A DNA stretch of 22,850 nt. It comes from Planctomycetales bacterium. GTDB lineage: Bacteria > Planctomycetota > Planctomycetia > Planctomycetales > Planctomycetaceae. Shown piece after piece: positions 1 through 22,850 of the stretch; the stretch's first letter is position 1, and each line of letters begins with the position of its first letter. A model generated the notes under the pieces. The model did no database searches, had not been told where the DNA came from, and was given only the letters and a program-made list of their open reading frames with translations. Both the position numbers and the translations under genes were made by a program. The stretch covers positions 1 to 22,850 of the forward strand of contig JACRIH010000533.1 of assembly GCA_016235885.1 (NCBI GenBank), given 5' to 3'.

Positions 1-46
1 CCTGCCTTTGAAGCAGTGAATGGAGGTTCGATTCCTTCTCCCCGAA
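1..46 (+). tRNA. tRNA-Gln (anticodon TTG), 5' end cut by the window edge
   Basis: Anticodon stem-loop ctgc-CTTTGAA-gcag with U33. T-arm GGAGG-TTCGATT-CCTTC. Acceptor 3' strand tctccccga. No encoded CCA. Confidence 0.7.
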
Positions 47-91
47 CTTGCGAACTTGCGACTGGCAGCGTGTGTCAAATGTCGCGAACAC

Positions 92-166
92 TCCGGGGCG
101 GTTGCTGCTGGTAGCAACGTCTGGCTCTGAACCAGAAGGTCGTTGGTTCGATTCCAACCCCCGGAA
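92..166 (+). tRNA. tRNA-Gln (anticodon CTG)
   Basis: Acceptor tccgggg/ccccgga is fully complementary. Anticodon arm tctgg-CTCTGAA-ccaga. T-arm GTTGG-TTCGATT-CCAAC. Length 75 nt. Confidence 0.8.
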
Positions 167-170
167 TTGA

Positions 171-243
171 AGGCAGAAGGATGAAATCGCTCGTGACCCC
201 AACCACTCGCCAAACGTTCATCCTTCATCCTTCTGCCTTTTTT
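171..243 (+). terminator. Inter-tRNA hairpin followed by a T5 run (terminator-like or processing element)
   Basis: 15-bp perfect inverted repeat aggcagaaggatgaa / ttcatccttctgcct (171-185 and 224-238) with a 38-nt loop. Followed by ttttt immediately before tRNA-Ser. Confidence 0.35.
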
Positions 244-329
244 GGAAGTCATCCGGCCGGATGAGGGACCTGTCCCGAAAACAGGTGGCGAGTTGAACTC
301 GCTTGTGGGTTCGAGTCCCACGGCTTCCG
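244..329 (+). tRNA. tRNA-Ser (anticodon CGA), class II with long variable arm
   Basis: Acceptor ggaagtc/ggcttcc. Anticodon arm cctgt-CCCGAAA-acagg. Variable-arm hairpin gcgag-ttgaa-ctcgc. T-arm GTGGG-TTCGAGT-CCCAC. Position 33 reads as C, which is atypical. Confidence 0.65.
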
Positions 330-519
330 CTGAACAAGGGCTCATGGTCCAACAGCAAGACGTCGGTCCTGCAAACCGGAGATTCGGGTGCAACTCACGG
401 TGGGTCCATTTTGAAGAGTTGAAGAGTGAAGGGCGAAGGGTGGAGGGCGAAAACAAAGTTGGGCAACCACGTCGTGGTACGCTTCGTGTTTTTCATTCTT
501 CTCACTTCACTCTTCATCC

Positions 520-591
520 GGTCCCGTGGTCCAGCGGCGACGACTTCTGGCCTACACCCAGACAACGATGGTTCGAGTCCATCCGGGATCA
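520..591 (+). tRNA. tRNA-Val (anticodon TAC)
   Basis: Acceptor ggtcccg/cgggatc (one G-U pair). Anticodon arm tctgg-CCTACAC-ccaga. T-arm GATGG-TTCGAGT-CCATC. 3-bp D-stem; C at position 33. Confidence 0.65.
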
Positions 592-599
592 TATTGATT

Positions 600-673
600 G
601 TCCTCGCGGAGCAGCTCGGAATGCTCGCCACCCTGTCACGGTGGAGACGTGGGTTCAAATCCCATCGAGGACG
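600..673 (+). tRNA. tRNA-Asp (anticodon GTC)
   Basis: Acceptor gtcctcg/cgaggac. D-stem gagc/gctc. Anticodon arm ccacc-CTGTCAC-ggtgg. T-arm GTGGG-TTCAAAT-CCCAT. Confidence 0.8.
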
Positions 674-696
674 TTTGGTGATGTGATATGTGATTC

Positions 697-778
697 GCGT
701 CGGCTGGGCATCGGCGTGCCCAAGTGGCCGTAACCCACCCGCCTTCGGGCAATGCAGGTTCGACTCCTGCTCGACGCA
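697..778 (+). tRNA. tRNA-Tyr (anticodon GTA), long variable arm
   Basis: Acceptor gcgtcgg/tcgacgc. D-stem gggc/gccc. Anticodon loop CCGTAAC. Variable arm gcc-ttcg-ggc. T-arm GCAGG-TTCGACT-CCTGC. Confidence 0.65.
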
Positions 779-785
779 TTGTTTC

Positions 786-858
786 GGCCCGTTCGTCTAT
801 TGGTACAGGACGCCAGCTTCTCACGCTGGCAAGGCGAGTTCGATTCTCGCACGGGTCA
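786..858 (+). tRNA. tRNA-Glu (anticodon CTC)
   Basis: Acceptor ggcccgt/acgggtc. D-arm gtctattggtacaggac resembles canonical tRNA-Glu. Anticodon arm ccagc-TTCTCAC-gctgg. T-arm GGCGAG-TTCGATT-CTCGC. Confidence 0.8.
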
Positions 859-938
859 TCTACGAGTATTTGTGTAGCCCCTGCCCTCGTGGCCGGCACA
901 AGGCCGGCGGCTACGACGGCCAGATTGATGGAAGATTC

Positions 939-1021
939 GACCGAGTGGTGAAATTGGTAGACACGCGACGCTCAGAACGTCGAGCCGTCAAGGCATGGGA
1001 GTTCGAGTCTCCCCTTGGTCA
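939..1021 (+). tRNA. tRNA-Leu (anticodon CAG), class II
   Basis: Acceptor gaccgag/cttggtc. D-arm tggtgaaattggtagacac is typical of tRNA-Leu. Anticodon arm cgacg-CTCAGAA-cgtcg. Variable-arm stem gcc/ggc. T-arm GGGAG-TTCGAGT-CTCCC. Confidence 0.85.
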
Positions 1022-1106
1022 TCGTTATCGACGCAGGTGAGCCAGTGCTCAGCCGAGGCTCATAACCTCAGCCCGCCGGGTGCGACCCCCGGACCTGCCA
1101 CTTGCC

Positions 1107-1176
1107 GTAGGTCAGGCTTTCCAGCCTGACTCGTTGGGCTGTCAACACACAGGTCAGGCTGGAAAGCCTGACCTAC
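1107..1176. repeat. Nested-palindrome (BIME-like) element between tRNA-Leu and tRNA-Ser
   Basis: 24-bp arms gtaggtcaggctttccagcctgac / gtcaggctggaaagcctgacctac are exact reverse complements with a 22-nt spacer. Each arm also contains its own 8-bp palindrome gtcaggct..agcctgac. Confidence 0.6.
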
Positions 1177-1190
1177 GACAAGATCCTCTC

Positions 1191-1276
1191 GGAAGGTAGC
1201 CGGATACGGTTGGCCGGGCCGCACTGCTAACGCGGCTCTCGTCACTGAGATGAGGGTTCGAATCCCTTGCCTTCCG
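1191..1276 (+). tRNA. tRNA-Ser (anticodon GCT), class II
   Basis: Acceptor ggaaggt/gccttcc (one G-U). D-stem ccgg/ccgg. Anticodon loop CTGCTAA. Variable-arm stem tctc/gaga. T-arm GAGGG-TTCGAAT-CCCTT. Confidence 0.75.
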
Positions 1277-1380
1277 CTGAATGTTTGTTTCGTGACATGG
1301 TGTTCGTGGTGTACCGGTGTGCATGCGACTCTGTGAAAGTCGAGGCGGTGGGTTCAACTCCCCTCGAACACCCTGCTGTG

Positions 1381-1490
1381 AATGATGAATTTCGAATGAC
1401 GAATGACGAACCGGCACCGATGCCGTTCGAGCATTCGACATTCGTCATTCTTTCGTCATTCGGATTTCGTCCTTCGTCATTCCCCCACAG
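1381..1490. repeat. Inverted blocks of tandem decamers GAATGACGAA ... TTCGTCATTC (copy 1)
   Basis: Left block gaatgacgaatgacgaa; right block ttcgtcattctttcgtcattc...ttcgtcattc, in opposed orientation. Lies immediately upstream of the HNH gene start. Confidence 0.7.
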
Positions 1491-1497
1491 GTGCATC

Positions 1498-2091
1498 ATG
1501 TCGGCGGTTCTTACTCGACCAACGCTCGTGCTCAACCGGAACTGGCAACCGGTGGGTGTGGCCTCGGTGTCGCGCTCGCTGATCCTGTTGTGGAACGACA
1601 ACGCGCGCGTGGTCGATCCGGCGGACTTCCGGCTGTACACGTGGAGCGATTGGTCGCGAATGATTCCGCTCGCGGATGAACCGTTCATCCAGGCGGTTCG
1701 GTCGCGGCTGCGGGTGCCGGAAGTGATTTCGCTGACGAACTTCGACCGCGTTCCGATGAACGGGGTGACGTTCAGCCGGCGGAACATTTATCGGCGTGAC
1801 CGTTACACGTGTCAGTACTGCGGTTCGCAGCCGGGGAGCGAAGAACTGACGATCGATCACGTCCTGCCGCGGGCGCAGGGGGGAACTTCGATGTGGGAGA
1901 ACTGTGTTCTCGCATGCGTCGCTTGCAACAAGCGCAAGGCCGACCGCACGCCCGAACAGGCGCACATGCCGCTGCACAAGCGGCCGGTTCGTCCCTCATG
2001 GAAGCCGCACTACGCCACGCGCGGAGTCCGGATCGACAGTTGGTCCCGCTTCCTCAGTGAAGCGTATTGGAATGTGGAACTGAATGCGTAG
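1498..2091 (+). CDS. HNH endonuclease (COG1403 / McrA-like), 197 aa
   Basis: Translation starts MSAVLTRPTLVLNRNWQPV, the N-terminal motif typical of this family. C-terminal motif CQYCGS...LTIDHVLPRAQGG...WENCVLACVACNKRK has the C-X2-C...DH...N...C-X2-C arrangement. AGGTG lies 7 nt upstream of the ATG. The long ORF in the track begins inside the repeat/tRNA region and was trimmed. Confidence 0.85.
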   Translation: MSAVLTRPTLVLNRNWQPVGVASVSRSLILLWNDNARVVDPADFRLYTWSDWSRMIPLADEPFIQAVRSRLRVPEVISLTNFDRVPMNGVTFSRRNIYRRDRYTCQYCGSQPGSEELTIDHVLPRAQGGTSMWENCVLACVACNKRKADRTPEQAHMPLHKRPVRPSWKPHYATRGVRIDSWSRFLSEAYWNVELNA

Positions 2092-2109
2092 CGGAAAGCT
2101 TTCAGCAAT

Positions 2110-2171
2110 CAGCGGTCAGCGATCAGCCAATCGGTTGAGGCTGACTGTTGAAAGCTGATCGCTGACCGCTG
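2110..2171 (+). terminator. Long hairpin downstream of the HNH gene
   Basis: 18-bp perfect inverted repeat cagcggtcagcgatcagc / gctgatcgctgaccgctg around a 26-nt loop. There is no clear U-tract, so function as a terminator is uncertain. Confidence 0.35.
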
Positions 2172-2175
2172 CCAC

Positions 2176-2245
2176 ACGAGTGTGCTCCTGGGAGAGCCAG
2201 TGGTCTCCAAAGCCGCTTCATGAGGTTCGAATCCTCACACTCGTG
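2176..2245 (+). other. Degenerate tRNA-like element (possible tRNA pseudogene or integration-site remnant)
   Basis: Perfect acceptor pairing acgagtg/cactcgt and canonical T-arm TGAGG-TTCGAAT-CCTCA. No canonical anticodon arm can be folded, and the element is only 70 nt long. Confidence 0.4.
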
Positions 2246-2248
2246 CTG

Positions 2249-2296
2249 TTGGAGTCCCGGCTTCAGCCGGTCTGCCGCCTGAAGGCGGGACTCCAA
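2249..2296 (+). other. Compact three-way-junction structure following the tRNA-like element
   Basis: Outer stem ttggagtc/gactccaa encloses two hairpins, ccggc-ttca-gccgg and ccgcc-tgaa-ggcgg. Confidence 0.35.
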
Positions 2297-2299
2297 CCT

Positions 2300-2373
2300 G
2301 CCGACGTGGCTCGACTGAGAAAGGCATCTGTCCCGTAAACAGACTCATGCTGGTGCGAATCCAGTCGTCGGCT
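2300..2373 (+). tRNA. tRNA-Thr-like (anticodon CGT), non-canonical D-arm
   Basis: Perfect acceptor gccgacg/cgtcggc. Anticodon arm tctgt-CCCGTAA-acaga. T-arm GCTGG-TGCGAAT-CCAGT (G at position 54). D-arm cannot be folded canonically and position 33 is C. Confidence 0.5.
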
Positions 2374-2394
2374 CTTGGTTCAAAGTTTGTTTTG

Positions 2395-2512
2395 GGAGTG
2401 CTCCGGCTTGACGGAGCTTTGGAATTTTTTGCGAAGCACTTTCGCCATCCTATAGAAACGGAAAGAAAGTCGCTCCGCGACAATTCCAAAGCTCCGTCAA
2501 GCCGGAGCACTC
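2395..2512. repeat. MITE-like palindromic element with 32-bp perfect terminal inverted repeats
   Basis: ggagtgctccggcttgacggagctttggaatt (2395-2426) is the exact reverse complement of 2481-2512. Interior carries hairpins gcgaa..ttcgc and GTCGCTCCGCGAC. This element generates the mirror-image ORFs 2347..2598 (+) and 2235..2672 (-). Confidence 0.75.
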
Positions 2513-2518
2513 CAAAGT

Positions 2519-2589
2519 TGCCCTGCGGGTGTGCCGGAAGCATGACAGACTTCGAATCTGTCGGACGAGGTTCGATTCCTCGGTGGGGT
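2519..2589 (+). tRNA. tRNA-Arg-like (anticodon TCG), weak acceptor stem
   Basis: Anticodon arm acaga-CTTCGAA-tctgt. T-arm CGAGG-TTCGATT-CCTCG. Acceptor gccctgc/gtggggt needs three G-U pairs and the D-arm is poor. Followed by tttttt. Confidence 0.45.
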
Positions 2590-2599
2590 GTTTTTTGAA

Positions 2600-2670
2600 C
2601 GTCCTCGGAGTGTGGTGGATGCATGCGACCGTGCGAAGGTCGAAGATCAGGTTCGACTCCTGACGGGGAC
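2600..2670 (+). tRNA. tRNA-Arg-like (anticodon reads GCG, unusual)
   Basis: Acceptor gtcctcg/cggggac. Anticodon arm cgacc-GTGCGAA-ggtcg. T-arm TCAGG-TTCGACT-CCTGA. D-arm has G-U pairs; anticodon GCG is not a standard bacterial Arg isoacceptor. Confidence 0.45.
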
Positions 2671-2719
2671 ATCCGTGTTCGATCCGTGTTTCATCCGTGG
2701 CAAAAAAACAATTCCTCCC

Positions 2720-2791
2720 GACGCTGTTGCCGGATGGTCCGGCCACTGTCTGCAAAGCAGTTCTTCGTGGGTTCGATTCCCACCGGCGTCT
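2720..2791 (+). tRNA. tRNA-Cys (anticodon GCA)
   Basis: Acceptor gacgctg/cggcgtc. D-stem gccg/cggc. Anticodon arm actgt-CTGCAAA-gcagt. T-arm GTGGG-TTCGATT-CCCAC. Confidence 0.8.
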
Positions 2792-2801
2792 TCAAGGAAA
2801 A

Positions 2802-2842
2802 GTAGGGTGGGACCAGCTCGCGAAGCGAGTGCAGGCCCACCA
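2802..2842. repeat. REP-like unit GTAGGGTGGGAC..GAAGCG..GGCCCACCA (single copy)
   Basis: Same motif order as the palindromic dimer at 8206-8290. Contains a ctcgc-gaa-gcgag hairpin. Confidence 0.55.
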
Positions 2843-2992
2843 TTGCCGAGATGATGATTCGTCATGACCAGACACGAGCAATTTCAAGCAAGGTTGACGC
2901 AGCCGGGCCAGCGGCGCATCAAGACCTGTCCTGTTCGCAGGCGGTTGTCCGAATGTGTTCCGCGAGTGGGTTCTAACGAAGGCTGTGTCGGC

Positions 2993-3065
2993 GAGTGGTT
3001 AGCTCAGTGGGTAGAGCACCAGACCGTGAATCTGGCTGTCACAGGTTCGACTCCTGTACCAACTG
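2993..3065 (+). tRNA. tRNA-His-like (anticodon GTG), imperfect acceptor stem
   Basis: Perfect D-arm agctcagtgggtagagc. Anticodon arm ccaga-CCGTGAA-tctgg. T-arm ACAGG-TTCGACT-CCTGT. The acceptor strands gagtggt/accaact have two adjacent mismatches. Confidence 0.5.
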
Positions 3066-3480
3066 CGGTGTGAAAAACCGCTCCAAAACGCGAAAGCGTT
3101 TACCAACCGGCCCGACGGTGGCGGGCGAATGATTGATCTGCGGATGCTTCGTTGATGTGCTCTCGTAATTGAGTGCTGCTCGACGTCGGCCGAAAGGCTG
3201 GCGGATGAGTCAGCGGATTGCGGGCCGTGCATCGCGAACATCGGCAACGTGACGGTTTGCTTTGCAGGGCGTGGATTCAGCCATCGCAAATTTCGGACAG
3301 ACGGTCGTGGATGCTGGTCGGACGCTCGCGTGACATTTGTCCGCGAGCGACAAAACCAGACGAAGCGACCGAACCTCCGCAGCTCGCGATGGCTCAAACG
3401 TCTCTCCGCATCCCGGCGCGGGATTAACAATCGTTTCGCCACCTGACGGCAATTCAACTTCCTCTCCACAGCGGGGGAGA

Positions 3481-3660
3481 GGACGGGAGTGGGGAATGAC
3501 GAATTCCGAATGACGAATGACGAATGAATGACAAAGCTCGAATGACGAACACGAGCCTTCACTTCGAGTTCACTGCCTGAATGCGTCACCGGCGAATTCG
3601 GCATTCGGCATTCGTCATTCGGAATTCATTCGTCATTCGTGCTTCCGCCATTCGTCATTC
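3481..3660. repeat. Inverted blocks of tandem decamers GAATGACGAA ... TTCGTCATTC (copy 2)
   Basis: Left block has four or more gaatgacgaa-like units; right block has cattcgtcattcg units in opposite orientation. Upstream of the SPFH gene. Creates the HSSFVI-repeat artefact in the minus-strand ORF 2999..3604. Confidence 0.7.
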
Positions 3661-4897: not shown

Positions 4898-4995
4898 GCG
4901 GCTACGTAGCCATCACGCTCCGCGTGATGAGCCGAATGGCCAATCGACGTCGCATCCCGATTCGGCTCGTCACGCGGAGCGTGACGGCTACGTTA
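4898..4995. repeat. Nested-palindrome element with CGCTCCGCG core (family copy A)
   Basis: Left arm ggctacgtagcc-ATCACGCTCCGCGTGAT-gagccgaat. Right arm attcggctc-GTCACGCGGAGCGTGAC-ggctacgt. The arms are imperfect reverse complements and each arm is itself palindromic. Confidence 0.65.
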
Positions 4996-5787: not shown

Positions 5788-5853
5788 GTAGCCACGCTCG
5801 CCAAGAGCGTGGGTTTTCCGCGATTTTCCCCACGCTCTTGGCGAGCGTGGCTA
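5788..5853. repeat. 26-bp perfect inverted repeat, nested-palindrome type, upstream of nuoH
   Basis: gtagccacgctcgccaagagcgtggg and cccacgctcttggcgagcgtggctac are exact reverse complements with a 14-nt T-rich spacer. Each arm holds an 8-bp palindrome ccacgctc..gagcgtgg; the left one is followed by gttttcc, giving a terminator-like hairpin. Confidence 0.7.
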
Positions 5854-5892
5854 CCCCGAGATCAATGCGGTTACACTTGGCAAAGGTGAAGT

Positions 5893-7259: not shown

Positions 7260-7853
7260 ATGAGCGGAGCCAACTTTCTCTTTTGGGTGTATGCACTCGC
7301 CGCCGGCGGTTCGGCGATCGCGGTCGTTCTCACTCAAAACGTCGTGCGCATGGCGTTCTGGTTGATCGTATCGCTCGGTTCGACAGCCGGACTGTTTTTT
7401 CTGCTCGGCGCGGACTTTGTTGGGGCGGCTCAGCTTTTGGTTTACGTAGGCGGAACGCTCGTGCTGTTGATTTTCGGCGTGATGCTCACGGCGAGCGGGC
7501 CGTTCATCAACATGAAAACGAACCCCGGCGAATTGGTCTTGGCTGGTGTTGTCGGTTGCGCGTTGCTCGGAGTGATCCTGAGCACCACCGGCGCGGTCGC
7601 GTGGGATGCACTTCCCAGCTCGCAGCACCAACAAAAGCTTGGATTCAATCCACCAGAAGACGGTTCCACGCTGCGTCCGCTCGGGATGAGTTTCATCGGT
7701 CTGCGGCCGGACAAAGATTTGGATCGCAAGGGGACGTCCGGTCAATTGAGTACCGGATACCTGTTGCCGTTTGAAATTGTTTCGGTTCACCTTCTGGTCG
7801 TGCTAGTTGGAGCGGCATACCTCGCCCGAGCCAAGAGGCGTCAGGGTTCTTGA
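7260..7853 (+). CDS. nuoJ: NADH-quinone oxidoreductase subunit J (NuoJ/ND6)
   Basis: Hydrophobic NuoJ-like sequence MSGANFLFWVYALAAGGSAIAVVLTQNVVRMAFWLIVSLG...LLVYVGGTLVLLIFGVML. Placed between nuoH and nuoK. Confidence 0.85.
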   Translation: MSGANFLFWVYALAAGGSAIAVVLTQNVVRMAFWLIVSLGSTAGLFFLLGADFVGAAQLLVYVGGTLVLLIFGVMLTASGPFINMKTNPGELVLAGVVGCALLGVILSTTGAVAWDALPSSQHQQKLGFNPPEDGSTLRPLGMSFIGLRPDKDLDRKGTSGQLSTGYLLPFEIVSVHLLVVLVGAAYLARAKRRQGS

Positions 7854-8205: not shown

Positions 8206-8290
8206 TGTAGGGTGGGACAAGCGAAGCGCTGGCCCACCAAACGCAAAACATCACGATGGTGGGCCTTCGCTTCGCTTGTCCCACCCTACA
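8206..8290. repeat. Palindromic dimer of the GTAGGGTGGGAC..GGCCCACCA REP-like unit, between nuoK and nuoL
   Basis: tgtagggtgggacaagcgaagcg (8206-8228) is the exact reverse complement of 8268-8290. The inner pair ggcccacc / ggtgggcc extends this to an 85-bp near-perfect palindrome. Confidence 0.7.
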
Positions 8291-10658: not shown

Positions 10659-10667
10659 CAGTTCGTC

Positions 10668-10775
10668 GCCCTGTCGCTCCGCGACAGGAAAGCCGAATGC
10701 ATTTGAGTCATTGTTGTTGAAGACACATTCTGAGTCGTCTGGAAACTTGGCTGTCCTGTCGCGGAGCGGCAGGGC
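10668..10775. repeat. Nested-palindrome element with CGCTCCGCG core (family copy B), between nuoL and nuoM
   Basis: Arms gccCTGTCGCTCCGCGACAGg / cCTGTCGCGGAGCGGCAGggc with one mismatch. Each arm is palindromic. The gccgaatg and ggctac segments are shared with copy A. Confidence 0.65.
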
Positions 10776-10808
10776 TACTTTTCGGATTTTAAGGTAAGAC
10801 CTGTCATC

Positions 10809-14724: not shown

Positions 14725-14817
14725 CCGCTGGCGATCGGGCTTCAAGCTTCCAAGCCGCACGTCCAAGCGTGAGAGGTATTGCATCTCTCGCCCTTGGGCT
14801 TGCCCCAGGGGTTCATT

Positions 14818-14867
14818 GGCTTTTGCACTACTGGAAGTTCTCGCGAAAAGCGAGTAGTGCAAAAGCC
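14818..14867. repeat. Hairpin with CTCGCGAAAAGCGAG core upstream of tatD
   Basis: 15-bp inverted repeat ggcttttgcactact / agtagtgcaaaagcc flanks ctcgc-gaaaa-gcgag. The same core occurs at 2818-2832. Confidence 0.55.
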
Positions 14868-14943
14868 GTTGAACCACCGAGACAAGCTCGGTGGCGTAAC
14901 ATTCACGGCCTCTGAATTTTTGCCGCCGAATTGCATCGCCGCC

Positions 14944-16898: not shown

Positions 16899-16969
16899 TG
16901 GTTGACCTCTCCGAACGAATGGGTCGAGAAAGAATGACCCGGTGTTTTTGAAACGATGCCTCTCTGCGT

Positions 16970-17031
16970 CCTCCGCGCCTCTGCGTGAGCCATCCGTCGT
17001 ATGTATCTTGTCTCACGCTGAGGCGCGGAGG
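16970..17031. promoter_or_regulatory. Inverted repeat and CTCTGCG direct repeats in the divergent Ldh_2 / hydro-lyase intergenic region
   Basis: cctccgcgcctctgcgtgag / ctcacgctgaggcgcggagg is a 20-bp inverted repeat with one mismatch. CTCTGCG recurs at 16962, 16980, 17088 and 17098. Confidence 0.4.
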
Positions 17032-17177
17032 TCGCAGAGTAAAAACCGGATTGCAATTACCGGTGACTCAAAACACGAAGATGCCTTCTCTGCGCTCCTC
17101 TGCGAAATCTGCGTTTCCCCCATTCCGGTCCCAGTAATCACAAGGTCCGGTCCCTGGAAACCGCTCAGTTTGAGTAG

Positions 17178-17236
17178 GTAGACGGGTCACTCCGTGATCC
17201 GAACTTCCGGTCACGGAGTGACCGGTCTACATTCGC
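17178..17236. repeat. Palindromic element GTCACTCCGTGA-N12-GTCACGGAGTGACCGGTCTACATTCG (intergenic copy)
   Basis: 20-bp inverted repeat gtagacgggtcactccgtga / tcacggagtgaccggtctac with one mismatch. A second copy lies at 21941-21998 inside a coding sequence. Confidence 0.7.
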
Positions 17237-17337
17237 CGCCACCCATTGTCTTGCCAAGCTATCGCACCGGTCGCGAATGGAGAAGTGAGCGGCCTGGCTT
17301 GGCTTGTAATCTGGACGAAGCCCGCCAGAATCACGCC

Positions 17338-19518: not shown

Positions 19519-21039
19519 TTATGCCAACAACTCTTGGATCACGTGCCCATGCACGTCCGTCAACCGGCGGTCGATGCCGTTGTGGCGTAACGTCAGCTTC
19601 GTGTGGTCGATCCCCAGCAGGTGCAGGATTGTAGCGTGGATGTCGTAGACTTCGGTGGGGTTGTCGCGGTCCAGCGGCTTGTAGCCCCATTCGTCGCTCG
19701 GGCCGTGGGTGATGCCTCCCTGGATGCCGCCGCCGCACAGCCAGTTCGTGAAGACGTACGGATTGTGATCGCGCCCCTTGCCTCCTTGCGACGATGGCAT
19801 TCGGCCGAATTCGGTCGTCCAGTGGATGATCGTGTCGTCCAGCAGGCCGCGTTGTTTGAGATCCTGAATCAACGCGGCGGCGCCGCGAGCCATCCCCATC
19901 GCCAGCGGGCCGTGGTCTCGTTCGACGTCTTCGTGCGAATCCCAATTCCGGCGCGGGAAGCCGTTGTCGTTGCCCGAGTAGACCTGAATGAAGCGGACTC
20001 CGCGTTCGAGCAGCCGCCGGGCGACAAGGCACTTGCGCGAGAAATAGTCGATCTCCTCGATCGGGTTGATCTCTTTGTCGAACTCCGTCTTGCCGTGATC
20101 GAGGCCGTACAGTTTGAGGACGTGCTGCGGTTCCTGCGAAATGTCGAGCGCTTCCGGCGCGGCGAGTTGCATCCGGGCCGCGAGTTCATAGCTGCGGATG
20201 CGGGCGTCGAGTCGTTCGTCATCGTCGCGACCGGCAACGTGCAGGCGGTTCAGCCGGCCGAGCAGTTCAATTCCCACCGTTTCGCTCTGCCGTGTGATGA
20301 AGTCTCCCTGCTTCGCGGGGAACAGGTCGGCGATGGGCGTCTCGCGGCCGGGGAAGATCACCGTCCCCTGATGCTGCGCCGGCAGGAACGCGCTGTCCCA
20401 ATTCTTCGTCCCGTTCGAAGCGAAGCCGCGGTGATCGGGCAGCACGACGAACGTCGGCAGGTTTTCGTTCAGGCTGCCGAGACCGTAGCTGATCCAGCAG
20501 CCCATCCCCGGAAAGCCCGGTCGATTGAAGCCGGTGGTTTGCAGCAGCGTCCCCTGACTATGCACGCCCGTCTTGCCGACGACGTTGTGGACGAACGCGA
20601 TGTCATCCACAACCTTCCCGAGTTCCCCCACCACGTCGCTGAGCATCTTGCCGCACTGGCCGTACGGTTTGAAATCCCACACCGGTTTCAACCACGGTCC
20701 CAGCCCGTTCTGAAACGCCTCGACAGGCTCCCCAAAATCGGACGGCTGACCGTGGTGCTTGATGAGCGCGGGCTTGAAGTCGAACAAGTCGAGAGGACTC
20801 GCGGCCCCGGCCATGAAGAGTTGGATGACTCGCTTGGCGCGGGGTGCGAAGTGTGGCTGTGGTGAGTTTGAGGGCGTGAGAGTGCGAGGGTTTGGGGTAG
20901 AGTCGCCGGCGCGGAGTCGATCGTCGTTGAGGAGACTCGCCAGCGCGATCGCACCCAGGCCGCCGCCGGAGTTCCGAAGGAACTCGCGACGTGAGTGTGA
21001 ACTGTCCCCCGCCTGGCTGTGCCAAAATGAACGCTGCAT
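19519..21039 (-). CDS. DUF1501 domain protein (sulfatase-like fold) with twin-arginine signal peptide, 506 aa
   Basis: N-terminus MQRSFWHSQAGDSSHSRREFLRNSGGGLGAIALASLL carries a Tat motif. C-terminal GRDHNPYVF...HATILHLLGIDHTKLT...RLTDVHGHVIQELL is the DUF1501 signature. GAGGT lies 8 nt before the ATG. The upstream ORF extension to 21201 was rejected. Confidence 0.85.
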   Translation of the reverse strand: MQRSFWHSQAGDSSHSRREFLRNSGGGLGAIALASLLNDDRLRAGDSTPNPRTLTPSNSPQPHFAPRAKRVIQLFMAGAASPLDLFDFKPALIKHHGQPSDFGEPVEAFQNGLGPWLKPVWDFKPYGQCGKMLSDVVGELGKVVDDIAFVHNVVGKTGVHSQGTLLQTTGFNRPGFPGMGCWISYGLGSLNENLPTFVVLPDHRGFASNGTKNWDSAFLPAQHQGTVIFPGRETPIADLFPAKQGDFITRQSETVGIELLGRLNRLHVAGRDDDERLDARIRSYELAARMQLAAPEALDISQEPQHVLKLYGLDHGKTEFDKEINPIEEIDYFSRKCLVARRLLERGVRFIQVYSGNDNGFPRRNWDSHEDVERDHGPLAMGMARGAAALIQDLKQRGLLDDTIIHWTTEFGRMPSSQGGKGRDHNPYVFTNWLCGGGIQGGITHGPSDEWGYKPLDRDNPTEVYDIHATILHLLGIDHTKLTLRHNGIDRRLTDVHGHVIQELLA

Positions 21040-21114
21040 GATGAAACCTCGTGACGGTGTATTTCGTTCGTTTTTGGAGTGCGGCGGCTTGACGCCGCAT
21101 TTGTTTATTTTTGG

Positions 21115-21138
21115 CATGACAAGATTGCGGTTGTCATG
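21115..21138. promoter_or_regulatory. Operator-like palindrome CATGACAA-N8-TTGTCATG upstream of the DUF1501 gene
   Basis: 8-bp perfect inverted repeat centred about 85 bp upstream of the start codon. An adjacent AT-rich tract (tttgtttatttttgg) and the gcggc-ttgac-gccgc hairpin lie nearby. Confidence 0.35.
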
Positions 21139-21144
21139 ACTGTT

Positions 21145-21355
21145 GCCCCAACGGGGCGCAATTCGATAGCCCAGGGCGCAGCCCTGGGTTGGCAGTTGCA
21201 TCCATCACACGAGCCCCAATGGGGCGCAATATTGGGGATTCCCATATCCTCGACTGCGTCCTCACGCGAATTTCGCCCCGTTGGGGCTATCGCACCAATG
21301 ACCGCCGTTACCCAGGGCTGCGCCCTGGGCTATCGAATCGCGCCCCTTCGGGACT
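21145..21355. repeat. BIME-like cluster of GC-rich hairpins between the DUF1553 and DUF1501 genes
   Basis: 25-bp perfect inverted repeat gatagcccagggcgcagccctgggt (21165-21189) / acccagggctgcgccctgggctatc (21310-21334). Four small hairpins GCCCC-NNN-GGGGC lie in alternating orientation. Confidence 0.7.
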
Positions 21356-21378
21356 GATCAGAAAACTCCACTCCAAAA

Positions 21379-22500
21379 TCAATCCACAAAAACAAATTCA
21401 TTCAAATTCAACAGCAGCCGGCAAGTGTTGGCCAATCCGTGCTCGCGGGCGTACGTGGTGAGTTCCCGCAGTTCGTCGTCTGTCGGAGGCCGGCTGAGGG
21501 CGAGGCGAAACGCTTGCGTCACCTGTGACAAAATGTCTCCGCCGGGTTTCTCGACTCGGGCGGCGAAATGCTTCGACATGACCACGGTGAGCTGGTTGTT
21601 CAGGAGCGCCAGCGCTTGCAGAGGGGTGATCGTTTGCGTGCGCTTGTCGACCAGCATCGACGGATCGGCGCAGTCGAGCGTGGTCATGAACGGCTGCAAC
21701 TGCGAGCGGACGAGGAACCGGTACACCGACCGGCGATGCGATGCGGGATCGTCCGCGTTGTACAGGTGATATTCGTAGTGCGGCGAGTGCTCGGGCTTGT
21801 CGATCACGAAGTCCTGGAAACTCGGGCCACCGAGCGCGGGGTTGAGCTTGCCGCTGACGGACAGAATCGCATCGCGGATCGCTTCGGCTTCCAGACGCCG
21901 GCGACTTTGTCGCCAGAGGAAACGGTTGTCGGAGTCCAAAGTAGCCGCGTCACTCCGTGACGCGAGTTTCGGGTCACGGAGTGACCCGTCTACATTCGAC
22001 GACTGCCGATACGCCGCGCTCGTCACAATCAGTCGGTGCAGTCGCTTGATCGACTGGCCGCCGTCGCGGAATTCGCTGGCCAGCCAATCGAGCAGTTCGG
22101 GGTGACTCGGCAACTGACCCATTCGGCCGAAGTCGTTCGGCGTGTCCACGAGGCCGTGGCCGAAGTGGTAAAGCCAGACGCGGTTCACGATCGATCGCCA
22201 CGTCAGCGGGTTCTGCGGATCGGTCAGCCACTTCGCGAGGGCGGCACGGCGTGCCCCTTCTGCGTGATCGCTCGGCAGGTTGAATCGAGCCGGCAGCGCG
22301 GCCACCACGGTCAACGCTCCCGGTCCGGCTTCCGCTCCCGGCTTCGTCACGTCTCCGCGCGGCAGGAGGTGAATTGGTCTCGGCTTGCCACCATTCGCTC
22401 CGGTGCCAGAGAAGGCTCCCGAGCCGTGATGGATCGTGCCCGCGAACACGAGGCGCGGCGGAGGCAACTTCGATCCAGCCCAGTTCCAGGCACAACGCAT
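21379..22500 (-). CDS. DUF1553 (PSD1) domain protein, C-terminal part only; appears N-terminally truncated and is possibly a gene remnant
   Basis: LAKWLTDPQNPLTWRSIVNRVWLYHFGHGLVDTPNDFG...HPELLDWLASEF...IKRLHRLIVTSAAYRQSS and the C-terminus LLNLNEFVFVD match DUF1553. There is no PSCyt1/DUF1549 part. Upstream the same frame reaches a stop at 22579-22581, and the other minus frames read as low-complexity sequence. Confidence 0.65.
   Translation of the reverse strand: MRCAWNWAGSKLPPPRLVFAGTIHHGSGAFSGTGANGGKPRPIHLLPRGDVTKPGAEAGPGALTVVAALPARFNLPSDHAEGARRAALAKWLTDPQNPLTWRSIVNRVWLYHFGHGLVDTPNDFGRMGQLPSHPELLDWLASEFRDGGQSIKRLHRLIVTSAAYRQSSNVDGSLRDPKLASRSDAATLDSDNRFLWRQSRRRLEAEAIRDAILSVSGKLNPALGGPSFQDFVIDKPEHSPHYEYHLYNADDPASHRRSVYRFLVRSQLQPFMTTLDCADPSMLVDKRTQTITPLQALALLNNQLTVVMSKHFAARVEKPGGDILSQVTQAFRLALSRPPTDDELRELTTYAREHGLANTCRLLLNLNEFVFVD
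21941..21998. repeat. Second copy of the GTCACTCCGTGA...GTCACGGAGTGACCCGTCTACATTCG element, embedded in-frame in the DUF1553 coding sequence
   Basis: Matches 17178-17236 over about 40 of 46 aligned positions. On the minus strand it is translated as [18 protein letters not shown]. Confidence 0.65.
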
Positions 22501-22543
22501 GCAGCGTTACCGGGAACTGCTAGAGGTGAGCAACGACGATGAA

Positions 22544-22850
22544 TGGAAGATCCTGCAGCCCCGCATTGATAAGGTCCTTCAGGCCCAGCGCGATGTGCGT
22601 GTGAGAGCCGCCCTTGGCCGGCGCGGGAACGGCCCAACGCCGGGCGGCGCACAGGCTGATCCCAACGCGGCAAGCGGCCAGCGCCGGGGACGCGGTGGGC
22701 GTGGTGGTGCAGGCGACGCGACCGCTTCCGGCGCCGCTGCGGGCCGCAACAACGCGGTCCCCAACTCCAGCTTCGGCTCCACGGAGTCGACTCCCGAGGT
22801 GGCAGCTCTCCAAGCCGCGGTGGTAAACAAGGCGCCATCCTCGGAGATCA
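22544..22850 (+). CDS. Possible partial CDS running off the window end, with an apparent upstream frameshift (speculative)
   Basis: From ATG 22544 the frame is open to the end of the window (MEDPAARIDKVLQAQRDVRVRAALGRRGNG...TPEVAALQAAVVNKAPSSEI). The adjacent frame from TTG 22500 reads QRYRELLEVSNDDEWKILQP up to a C-run at 22557-22562. Gly/Arg-rich and low-complexity. Confidence 0.2.

Follow-up and report, generated by a model that had tools for sequence, protein, structure and literature searches.

Planctomycetota and Verrucomicrobiota are known for paired genes in which one partner encodes a protein with the domains PSCyt1 (PF07635), PSCyt2 or DUF1549 (PF07583), and PSD1 or DUF1553 (PF07587), and the other a protein of the DUF1501 family (PF07394). 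The PSCyt, DUF1549, DUF1553, and DUF1501 domains are reportedly mentioned together in a transcriptome study of Rhodopirellula baltica; no other such paper was found. Described here is a gene of this type, hereafter gene A, located at the end of contig JACRIH010000533.1 from assembly GCA_016235885.1 of a Planctomycetales bacterium. The contig is 22,850 nucleotides in length and will be referred to in its entirety as the window. It holds only the DUF1553-encoding third of gene A, which abuts, on the opposite strand, a piece of a different gene (gene B). Among the known artefacts of short-read metagenome assembly are chimeric contig ends and mis-joins at sites of short sequence sharing. On the basis of the comparisons presented below, the truncation of gene A is likely of this kind rather than of biological origin, with one intact gene split over two contigs and a chimeric tail attached to the window contig.

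The two putative parts of gene A

Listed in Table 1 are the features discussed throughout the text. Gene A is represented in the window by an open reading frame (ORF) of 373 residues on the minus strand (21379-22500), annotated as MBI5761219.1, a "DUF1553 domain-containing protein". Its sole Pfam domain is PSD1/DUF1553 (E-value of 2.4e-90), which extends from residues 84 to 350, covers positions 1 to 243 of the 244-position profile, and thus lies complete near the C-terminus of the fragment. The polypeptide chain terminates with NLNEFVFVD, as in its relatives. The initial annotation had described approximately 370 residues of DUF1553 sequence ending in the typical NEFVFVD motif, and this description is borne out.

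Table 1. Coordinates of the features of the window considered in the text.
Feature	Position	Strand	Description
Gene A, 3' third	21379..22472	(-)	linker and complete PSD1 domain; stop codon 21379-21381
Spurious 5' extension of MBI5761219.1	22473..22500	(-)	ATG 22500-22498 and MRCAWNWAG(S) codons, antisense to gene B
Junction	22454..22472	both	16-19 nt, CGCGGCGGAGGCAACTTCG; minus strand reads A (K-L-P-P-P-R), plus strand reads B (R-G-G-G-N-F)
Gene B fragment	22454..22850	(+)	approximately residues 64-192 of the 237-residue relative P0121
Hairpin (palindromic) repeat, ~63 nt	21931..22001		within gene A and in frame; occupies a variable loop of the DUF1553 region; second copy at 17178-17240
DUF1501 partner gene, intact	19519..21039	(-)	MBI5761218.1, 506 residues; directly downstream of gene A; Pfam DUF1501

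Relative to a 1004-residue ortholog from a sister lineage with the architecture PSCyt1-DUF1549(PSCyt2)-F5/8C-DUF1553(PSD1), the fragment corresponds to residues ~633 to 1004. When 14 full-length relatives (835 to 1031 residues, from related genome loci) were compared with the window by tblastn, only their last ~360 residues were matched, from 22473 or 22479 down to 21382, and their N-terminal ~640 residues, which contain PSCyt1 and DUF1549, had no match of meaningful E-value anywhere in the window. A weak but recurrent match to the DUF1549 region at 17976-17881 on the minus strand (E-values of 0.014 to 0.9) was rejected because the opposite (plus) strand has a strong D-Glu_cyclase match there. 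In all 20 of the related loci that are uncut by a contig edge, the frame is open for an additional 396 to 707 residues upstream. The gene in the window is thus N-terminally truncated, as had been proposed.

Upstream of 22472 there is no similarity to any gene A relative, and, as judged by these alignments, the annotated start and the first nine to ten residues of MBI5761219.1 (MRCAWNWAGS) are not part of the DUF1553 protein. Two in-frame stop codons precede the annotated ATG. The TGA at 22579-22581, where the reading frame had been said to close, is indeed present, but it is the second of the two, the nearest being a TAA at 22507-22509. The check put forward in the initial annotation, namely a tblastn comparison of a full-length relative with the DNA from 22500 onward, yielded no match beyond 22479. 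No degenerative changes were found in the retained part of gene A, which shows an uninterrupted match of 364 codons, 92% identity to the intact sister proteins, and a full-length match to the PSD1 profile.

The apparent continuation of gene A was found in the 90% cluster of the sister protein. It is a 684-residue entry, MBI5760534.1 (P0343), from a Planctomycetales bacterium and located on a 4,451-bp contig, which is annotated as a "DUF1549 domain-containing protein, partial". Its domains are PSCyt1 (residues 91-147, with the motif CLSCH), DUF1549 (residues 210-424), and F5/8C (residues 498-595). Thus, the PSCyt1 (CxxCH) and PSCyt2/DUF1549 domains expected N-terminal to PSD1, although absent from the window, are present on a separate contig. 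P0343 spans residues 1 to 624 of the sister protein and ends with ...RRDLLVVSTTL at the contig edge, and the window fragment begins at residue 632 or 633 and continues to 1004. The gap between the two amounts to eight residues, AVKTRELA. The amino acid sequence identities of P0343 to the three proteins P0223, P0344, and P0224 are 93.8%, 91.5%, and 79.5%, respectively, and those of the window fragment are 92.0% (over residues 632-1004 of P0223), 91.8%, and 78.8%. The organism name is identical for the two entries, and their accession numbers are 685 apart. Given the accession proximity, the shared organism name, and the equal divergence from the sister proteins, the two contigs almost certainly belong to one metagenome-assembled genome (MAG). 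The initial annotation had offered a gene remnant as one explanation, and this idea fails: the missing 5' two-thirds are present as MBI5760534.1 on another contig, and the 3' part is without decay.

When P0343 and the window fragment are placed end to end, the reconstructed protein displays the full architecture of the PSCyt1-DUF1549-DUF1553 family, with CLSCH in PSCyt1, DUF1549 and DUF1553 separated by an F5/8-type-C domain, the NLNEFVFVD terminus, and a DUF1501 gene downstream. That neighboring gene lies on the same strand directly downstream of gene A (PF07394, E-value of 7.8e-131 for the ORF at 19519-21201 on the minus strand), and its product contains a twin-arginine-like SRREFLR sequence near the N-terminus. 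The same gene order is observed in four related loci (L092, L085, L086, and L088). With the exception of the probable assembly break, no difference from the family is apparent, and by its domain content gene A is a typical member accompanied by a DUF1501 gene.

The closest locus is the JGI contig Ga0418799_155550 (L092), which is 89 to 94% identical to the window at the DNA level and shows the same order of an 89-residue gene, DUF1501, and gene A. Its gene A is intact and encodes 1004 residues with the PSCyt1, PSCyt2, F5/8C, and PSD1 domains. A second sister protein, P0344, is likewise intact, and the sister orthologs range from 1004 to 1087 residues. Another sister contig, L093, ends inside DUF1501, short of gene A. 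A scan of genome contigs with gene A returned 80 related loci, the best of which shows 67% identity.

The junction with gene B

Homology to gene A ends at 22472, and homology to the gene B proteins begins at 22454-22460 in most alignments. The initial annotation had suggested a rearrangement breakpoint near 22500-22580; a break does exist, but the homology limits place it at 22454-22472. The junction stretch, CGCGGCGGAGGCAACTTCG, occurs once in the window. In a blastn comparison, window positions 21369-22472 aligned with positions 8172-7042 of L092 at 89% identity, and the similarity stopped exactly at 22472. Across the break point L092 reads ...VVSTALAVKTRELAKLPPPRLVFAGT..., and the antisense strand of its intact gene A likewise encodes RGGGNF at this spot. 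When aligned with 18 relatives, the window conforms to the gene A consensus from K-L-P-P-P-R-L-V-F-A-G-T onward, whereas upstream of the junction it reads CAWNWAGS in place of the helical ...ELAKL segment of the relatives.

The junction is positioned 378 nucleotides from position 22850, which is the contig end. The proteins encoded by the window, from MBI5761206 (NuoH) to MBI5761219 (gene A), follow one another in gene order on one contig. An exact 43-mer across the junction had no match in the JGI metagenome contigs, and the A/B junction was not seen in any independent assembly. The strain occurs in run SRR12113407, a Logan contig of which matches the window with 100% identity along ~1.26 kb.

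On the far side of the junction, the plus strand is open from 22430 to 22850 (140 codons) following a TGA at 22427-22429. It encodes ...RRGGGNFDPAQFQAQRMQRYRELLEVSNDDEWKILQPRIDKVLQAQRDV..., a Gly/Arg-rich stretch, and then ...STPEVAALQAAVVNKAPSSEI. The observation of the initial annotation that the final ~270 bp display no DUF1549-like signal in any minus-strand frame was correct, yet the last ~400 nucleotides are not non-coding since their plus strand encodes a fragment of gene B. Homologs of the gene B product were identified in 83 matches, the best of which, P0121, shows 58% identity over 134 aligned residues. The family consists of small (~170-240 residues), glycine-rich proteins with a signal peptide. 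Its core, GGGNFDPAQFQ..RM..Y(R/K)E.LEV..DDEWK, precedes a linker rich in Gly and Arg and a helical region at the C-terminus, and this core is present in the fragment. A Pfam scan of the fragment and eight relatives reached no family; sub-threshold matches to Metal_resist (Spy/CpxP-like) were noted in three of the eight relatives, with E-values of 0.007 to 0.26.

Gene B is incomplete at both ends. The window ends ~45 residues short of its C-terminus. With respect to its N-terminus, tblastn alignments of ten gene B relatives begin between 22436 and 22472, mostly at 22454-22460, and eight of the ten extend to 22849. These starting points correspond to residues 24 to 64 of the relatives, past their signal peptides. 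A hydrophobic N-terminus is present in all of the gene B relatives inspected, and neither it nor a signal peptide is found in the fragment: a stop codon (22427-22429) occurs shortly before it, preceded by antisense DNA of gene A. Because the alignments start past the signal peptides of the relatives and a stop codon immediately precedes the open frame, gene B, too, is 5'-truncated in the window.

No relative of gene B was encountered in the 16.6 kb of L092 that were read, including ~5 kb upstream of gene A, nor in L093, nor within up to 10 kb fetched on either side of the 80 A-type loci. The gene B relatives examined occur in other contexts, either beside an SDF symporter or, in one lineage (L082/L083, 6001-6564), immediately upstream of an operon for type II secretion that encodes T2SS E, F, G, J, and K. 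A search of the metagenome contigs with the gene B fragment returned one weak locus only, and three guessed translations of the partial gene B coding sequence were all absent from the protein collection. The G+C content at third codon positions (GC3) is 0.73 for gene B and 0.74-0.80 for the other genes of the window, and by this measure gene B may come from the same genome.

Origin of the join

Two contig ends at one spot, fragments without decay, intact genes in the sister lineages, and a short sequence common to both sides make an assembly break with a chimeric end the most economical explanation of the locus, and it is from these observations that we infer the join to be artefactual. According to this explanation, a normal gene encoding ~1000 residues with the PSCyt1-DUF1549-F5/8C-DUF1553 arrangement would have been broken into two contigs during short-read metagenome assembly, such that its 5' two-thirds came to lie at the end of the 4,451-bp contig and its 3' third at the end of the 22,850-bp window contig. 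The latter would then have been extended at the break by 378 nucleotides of gene B in the opposite orientation, joined through the 16-19-nucleotide stretch that antisense A (KLPPPR) and B (RGGGNF) would by chance have in common. The annotation pipeline would subsequently have taken the first ATG, located in the antisense of gene B, to produce the 373-residue "DUF1553 domain-containing protein". Gene A itself is probably intact in the organism.

The locus resembles known chimeric contig ends in several respects. The junction is a few hundred bases from the end of the contig, and the complementary piece of the gene, a partial entry that stops eight codons short, is found where another contig of apparently the same bin ends. 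A short sequence is shared at the join, and both of the joined pieces are otherwise perfect coding sequence. It differs from typical cases in that the demonstrable shared stretch of 16-19 nucleotides reaches, or falls just short of, the smallest k-mer in common use. Indeed, several considerations weigh against an artefact. The smallest common k-mers are 20-21 nucleotides, slightly above the observed length, and a simple de Bruijn join requires a shared stretch slightly longer than protein homology can show. The join is seen in the assembled sequence, and the 4,451-bp contig is represented here by its protein; a real inversion would equally leave the 5' part elsewhere. The assignment of the two contigs to one MAG derives from accession proximity, organism name, and matching divergence. 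Finally, the GC3 value of gene B fits the window genes, and gene B is thus possibly from the same genome. A chimeric join, if such it is, may for this reason have linked two loci that belong to one genome or to similar genomes.

The main rival explanation is a real structural variant, in which an inversion or other illegitimate recombination at the inverted microhomology of 16-19 nucleotides split gene A in a strain or sub-population. The DUF1553 third would remain beside DUF1501, head-to-head with the 3' part of gene B, and the reciprocal junction between the 5' parts of A and B would be expected immediately past the point where the 4,451-bp contig ends. An inversion between two same-strand genes predicts exactly such a head-to-head pair of 5'-truncated genes with shared microhomology, as well as the survival of the 5' part of gene A elsewhere in the genome, and both are observed. 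The GC3 value of gene B is compatible with this scheme, and, were the population mixed, a structural variant would likewise make the assembler break at this site. What a clonal inversion leaves unexplained is that the two contigs end within 24 and 378 nucleotides of the breakpoint. Unlike the outcome expected from microhomology-mediated inversion, neither remnant shows decay, the contigs break exactly at the site, and the reciprocal junction is without evidence; moreover, gene A is intact in both sister lineages, and the junction is absent from both the JGI metagenome contigs and any independent assembly. An inversion is therefore judged to be unlikely. If true, and recent, it would represent a natural "domain-deletion" variant of the gene A family, with an undecayed DUF1553 third beside DUF1501, and the gene for a small secreted protein (gene B) would have been decapitated. 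It would be an ordinary recent rearrangement of little wider consequence.

A deletion between divergent neighbors A and B that removed both 5' ends and the spacer, and left a true remnant, would likewise account for the geometry of two 5'-truncated, head-to-head genes with microhomology. It is considered very improbable, since no gene B is found in the 16.6 kb of L092 that were read, in L093, or within up to 10 kb of the 80 A-type loci, and the relatives of gene B that were examined adjoin an SDF symporter or a type II secretion operon. Furthermore, the DNA upstream of gene A in L092 contains unrelated genes, and the "deleted" 5' part is present in what is apparently the same MAG.

The initial annotation had also raised sequencing or assembly frameshifts. 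In this case the gene would be whole in the window and broken by one or two indels upstream of 22500. Frameshift-split relatives do exist, some in assemblies of long reads and others in a different MAG: P0037, P0061, and P0104 are pieces of such genes, with the PSCyt1, PSCyt2, and F5/8C ORFs directly upstream on the same strand, and L091 (1657-4935) contains a ~2.9-kb frameshifted, near-full-length copy that is called as three small PSD1 ORFs. In the window, however, only 378 nucleotides are left where ~1,900 would be required, these nucleotides encode gene B on the opposite strand, and none of the 14 full-length relatives has any similarity to the minus-strand frames of 22473-22850. Thus, whereas an assembly problem was rightly anticipated, there is next to no likelihood of indels. 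The 55-residue representative of the cluster containing gene A (P0222) was traced to L091, where it proved to belong to a frameshifted paralog with ~68% DNA identity, and it is uninformative with respect to the junction.

Equally hard to credit is a natural stand-alone DUF1553 protein that functions with DUF1501 in the absence of the PSCyt and DUF1549 domains. The ORF is intact with an ATG, and many database entries of 340 to 450 residues carry PSD1 only. These short entries, however, are contig-edge partials or frameshift pieces. P0037, P0061, and P0104, which are short DUF1553-only proteins encoded on long contigs, were evaluated as a natural short form and rejected on account of their frameshifts. 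The ATG and the first nine to ten residues of MBI5761219.1 are the antisense of gene B, and the sister orthologs are, as noted above, more than 1000 residues in length. The protein homology lists appear to be limited to matches of up to ~1.75 times the query length. Accordingly, no listed match to the 373-residue query exceeds 653 residues, and even the 1004-residue sister ortholog, with ~90% identity, is missing; relatives of ~1000 residues appear when a longer query is employed. The abundance of short DUF1553 entries reflects this search bias together with contig-edge partials. Queries with gene fragments thus return mainly fragments and may give the false impression of a "short form" family. 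Other MAGs, too, contain related genes in broken form (L085, 1-300; L091). P0001, a 525-residue protein that is the best match to gene A at 72% identity, starts within DUF1549 in L085, 293 nucleotides from the contig end.

Hairpin elements and other features of the window

Within the retained part of gene A is a hairpin repeat that belongs to the repeat families D3, I1, I14, and I18 and for which the calculated DNA folding energy is -26.1 kcal/mol (z = -4.9). Its second copy in the window, at 17178-17240, is 85% identical and located in an intergenic spacer, and the hairpin core, GTCACTCCGTGA...TCACGGAGTGAC, also occurs in L038. The loop of the DUF1553 region that contains the hairpin is 33 residues in length, as compared to a mode of 22 residues in 94 homologs. 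In the sister locus L092 the same loop carries a different hairpin (7526-7580) with ~30 predicted base pairs. A third insert, QISDLRLPIADL...NRQSAIGNRQS, is found in this loop in P0344, where the palindromic appearance is deduced only at the protein level. Inserts of the VISNQ...LITD type, again in the same loop, are seen in more distant homologs (P0025, P0036, P0047, and P0066).

These features are reminiscent of the Rickettsia palindromic elements (RPEs) and of MITEs (miniature transposable elements with inverted repeats): the hairpins of gene A are in frame in a variable surface loop, the reading frame is unbroken, and copies are intergenic as well. They differ from the Rickettsia elements in that the phylum is Planctomycetota, the window and L092 carry different hairpins at the same loop, and transposition is here only presumed from sequence. 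By analogy, the gene A loop may be a hot-spot for the in-frame insertion of mobile hairpin elements.

The spacers of the window contain many different long hairpin or palindromic repeats, for example at 2392-2516, 4904-4993, 5788-5854, 8206-8290, 10665-10778, 14772-14913, 16962-17039, and 21147-21352. Two spacer hairpin families are also present in L092 at other positions. The type found at 2385-2516 of the window, for instance, is located between gene A and DUF1501 in L092 (8159-8307), and the corresponding spacer of the window holds a different pair (21147-21189 and 21310-21352). The occurrence of the same families at differing positions in L092 and the window suggests that the spacer hairpins are recently mobile elements similar to repetitive extragenic palindromic (REP) sequences or MITEs.

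At the opposite end of the window (1-3100), 15 tRNA genes are arranged within ~3 kb in the order Gln, Ser, Val, Asp, Tyr, Glu, Leu, Ser, His, Trp, Thr, Arg, Arg, Cys, and His. The tRNA-His(GTG) gene occurs twice, and there is possibly an additional tRNA 3' end at the contig start (6-36). An ORF for an HNH endonuclease lies amid the array (within 1267-2091). Degenerate blocks of GAATGAC/GAATGACGAA heptamer-like repeats at 1380-1485 and 3485-3660 form inverted repeats of 51 to 54 nucleotides, ~2 kb apart, that flank six of the tRNA genes together with the HNH gene; they belong to the families D1, D5, D6, I2, I6, I8, and I9.

With regard to the PSCyt1-DUF1549-DUF1553 family, the present analysis calls for caution in that MBI5761219.1 and MBI5760534.1 are most likely two pieces of one gene, and short "DUF1553-only" database entries are in general fragments rather than a distinct architecture. 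A more promising lead than the truncation itself is provided by the in-frame hairpin elements in the variable loop of gene A.

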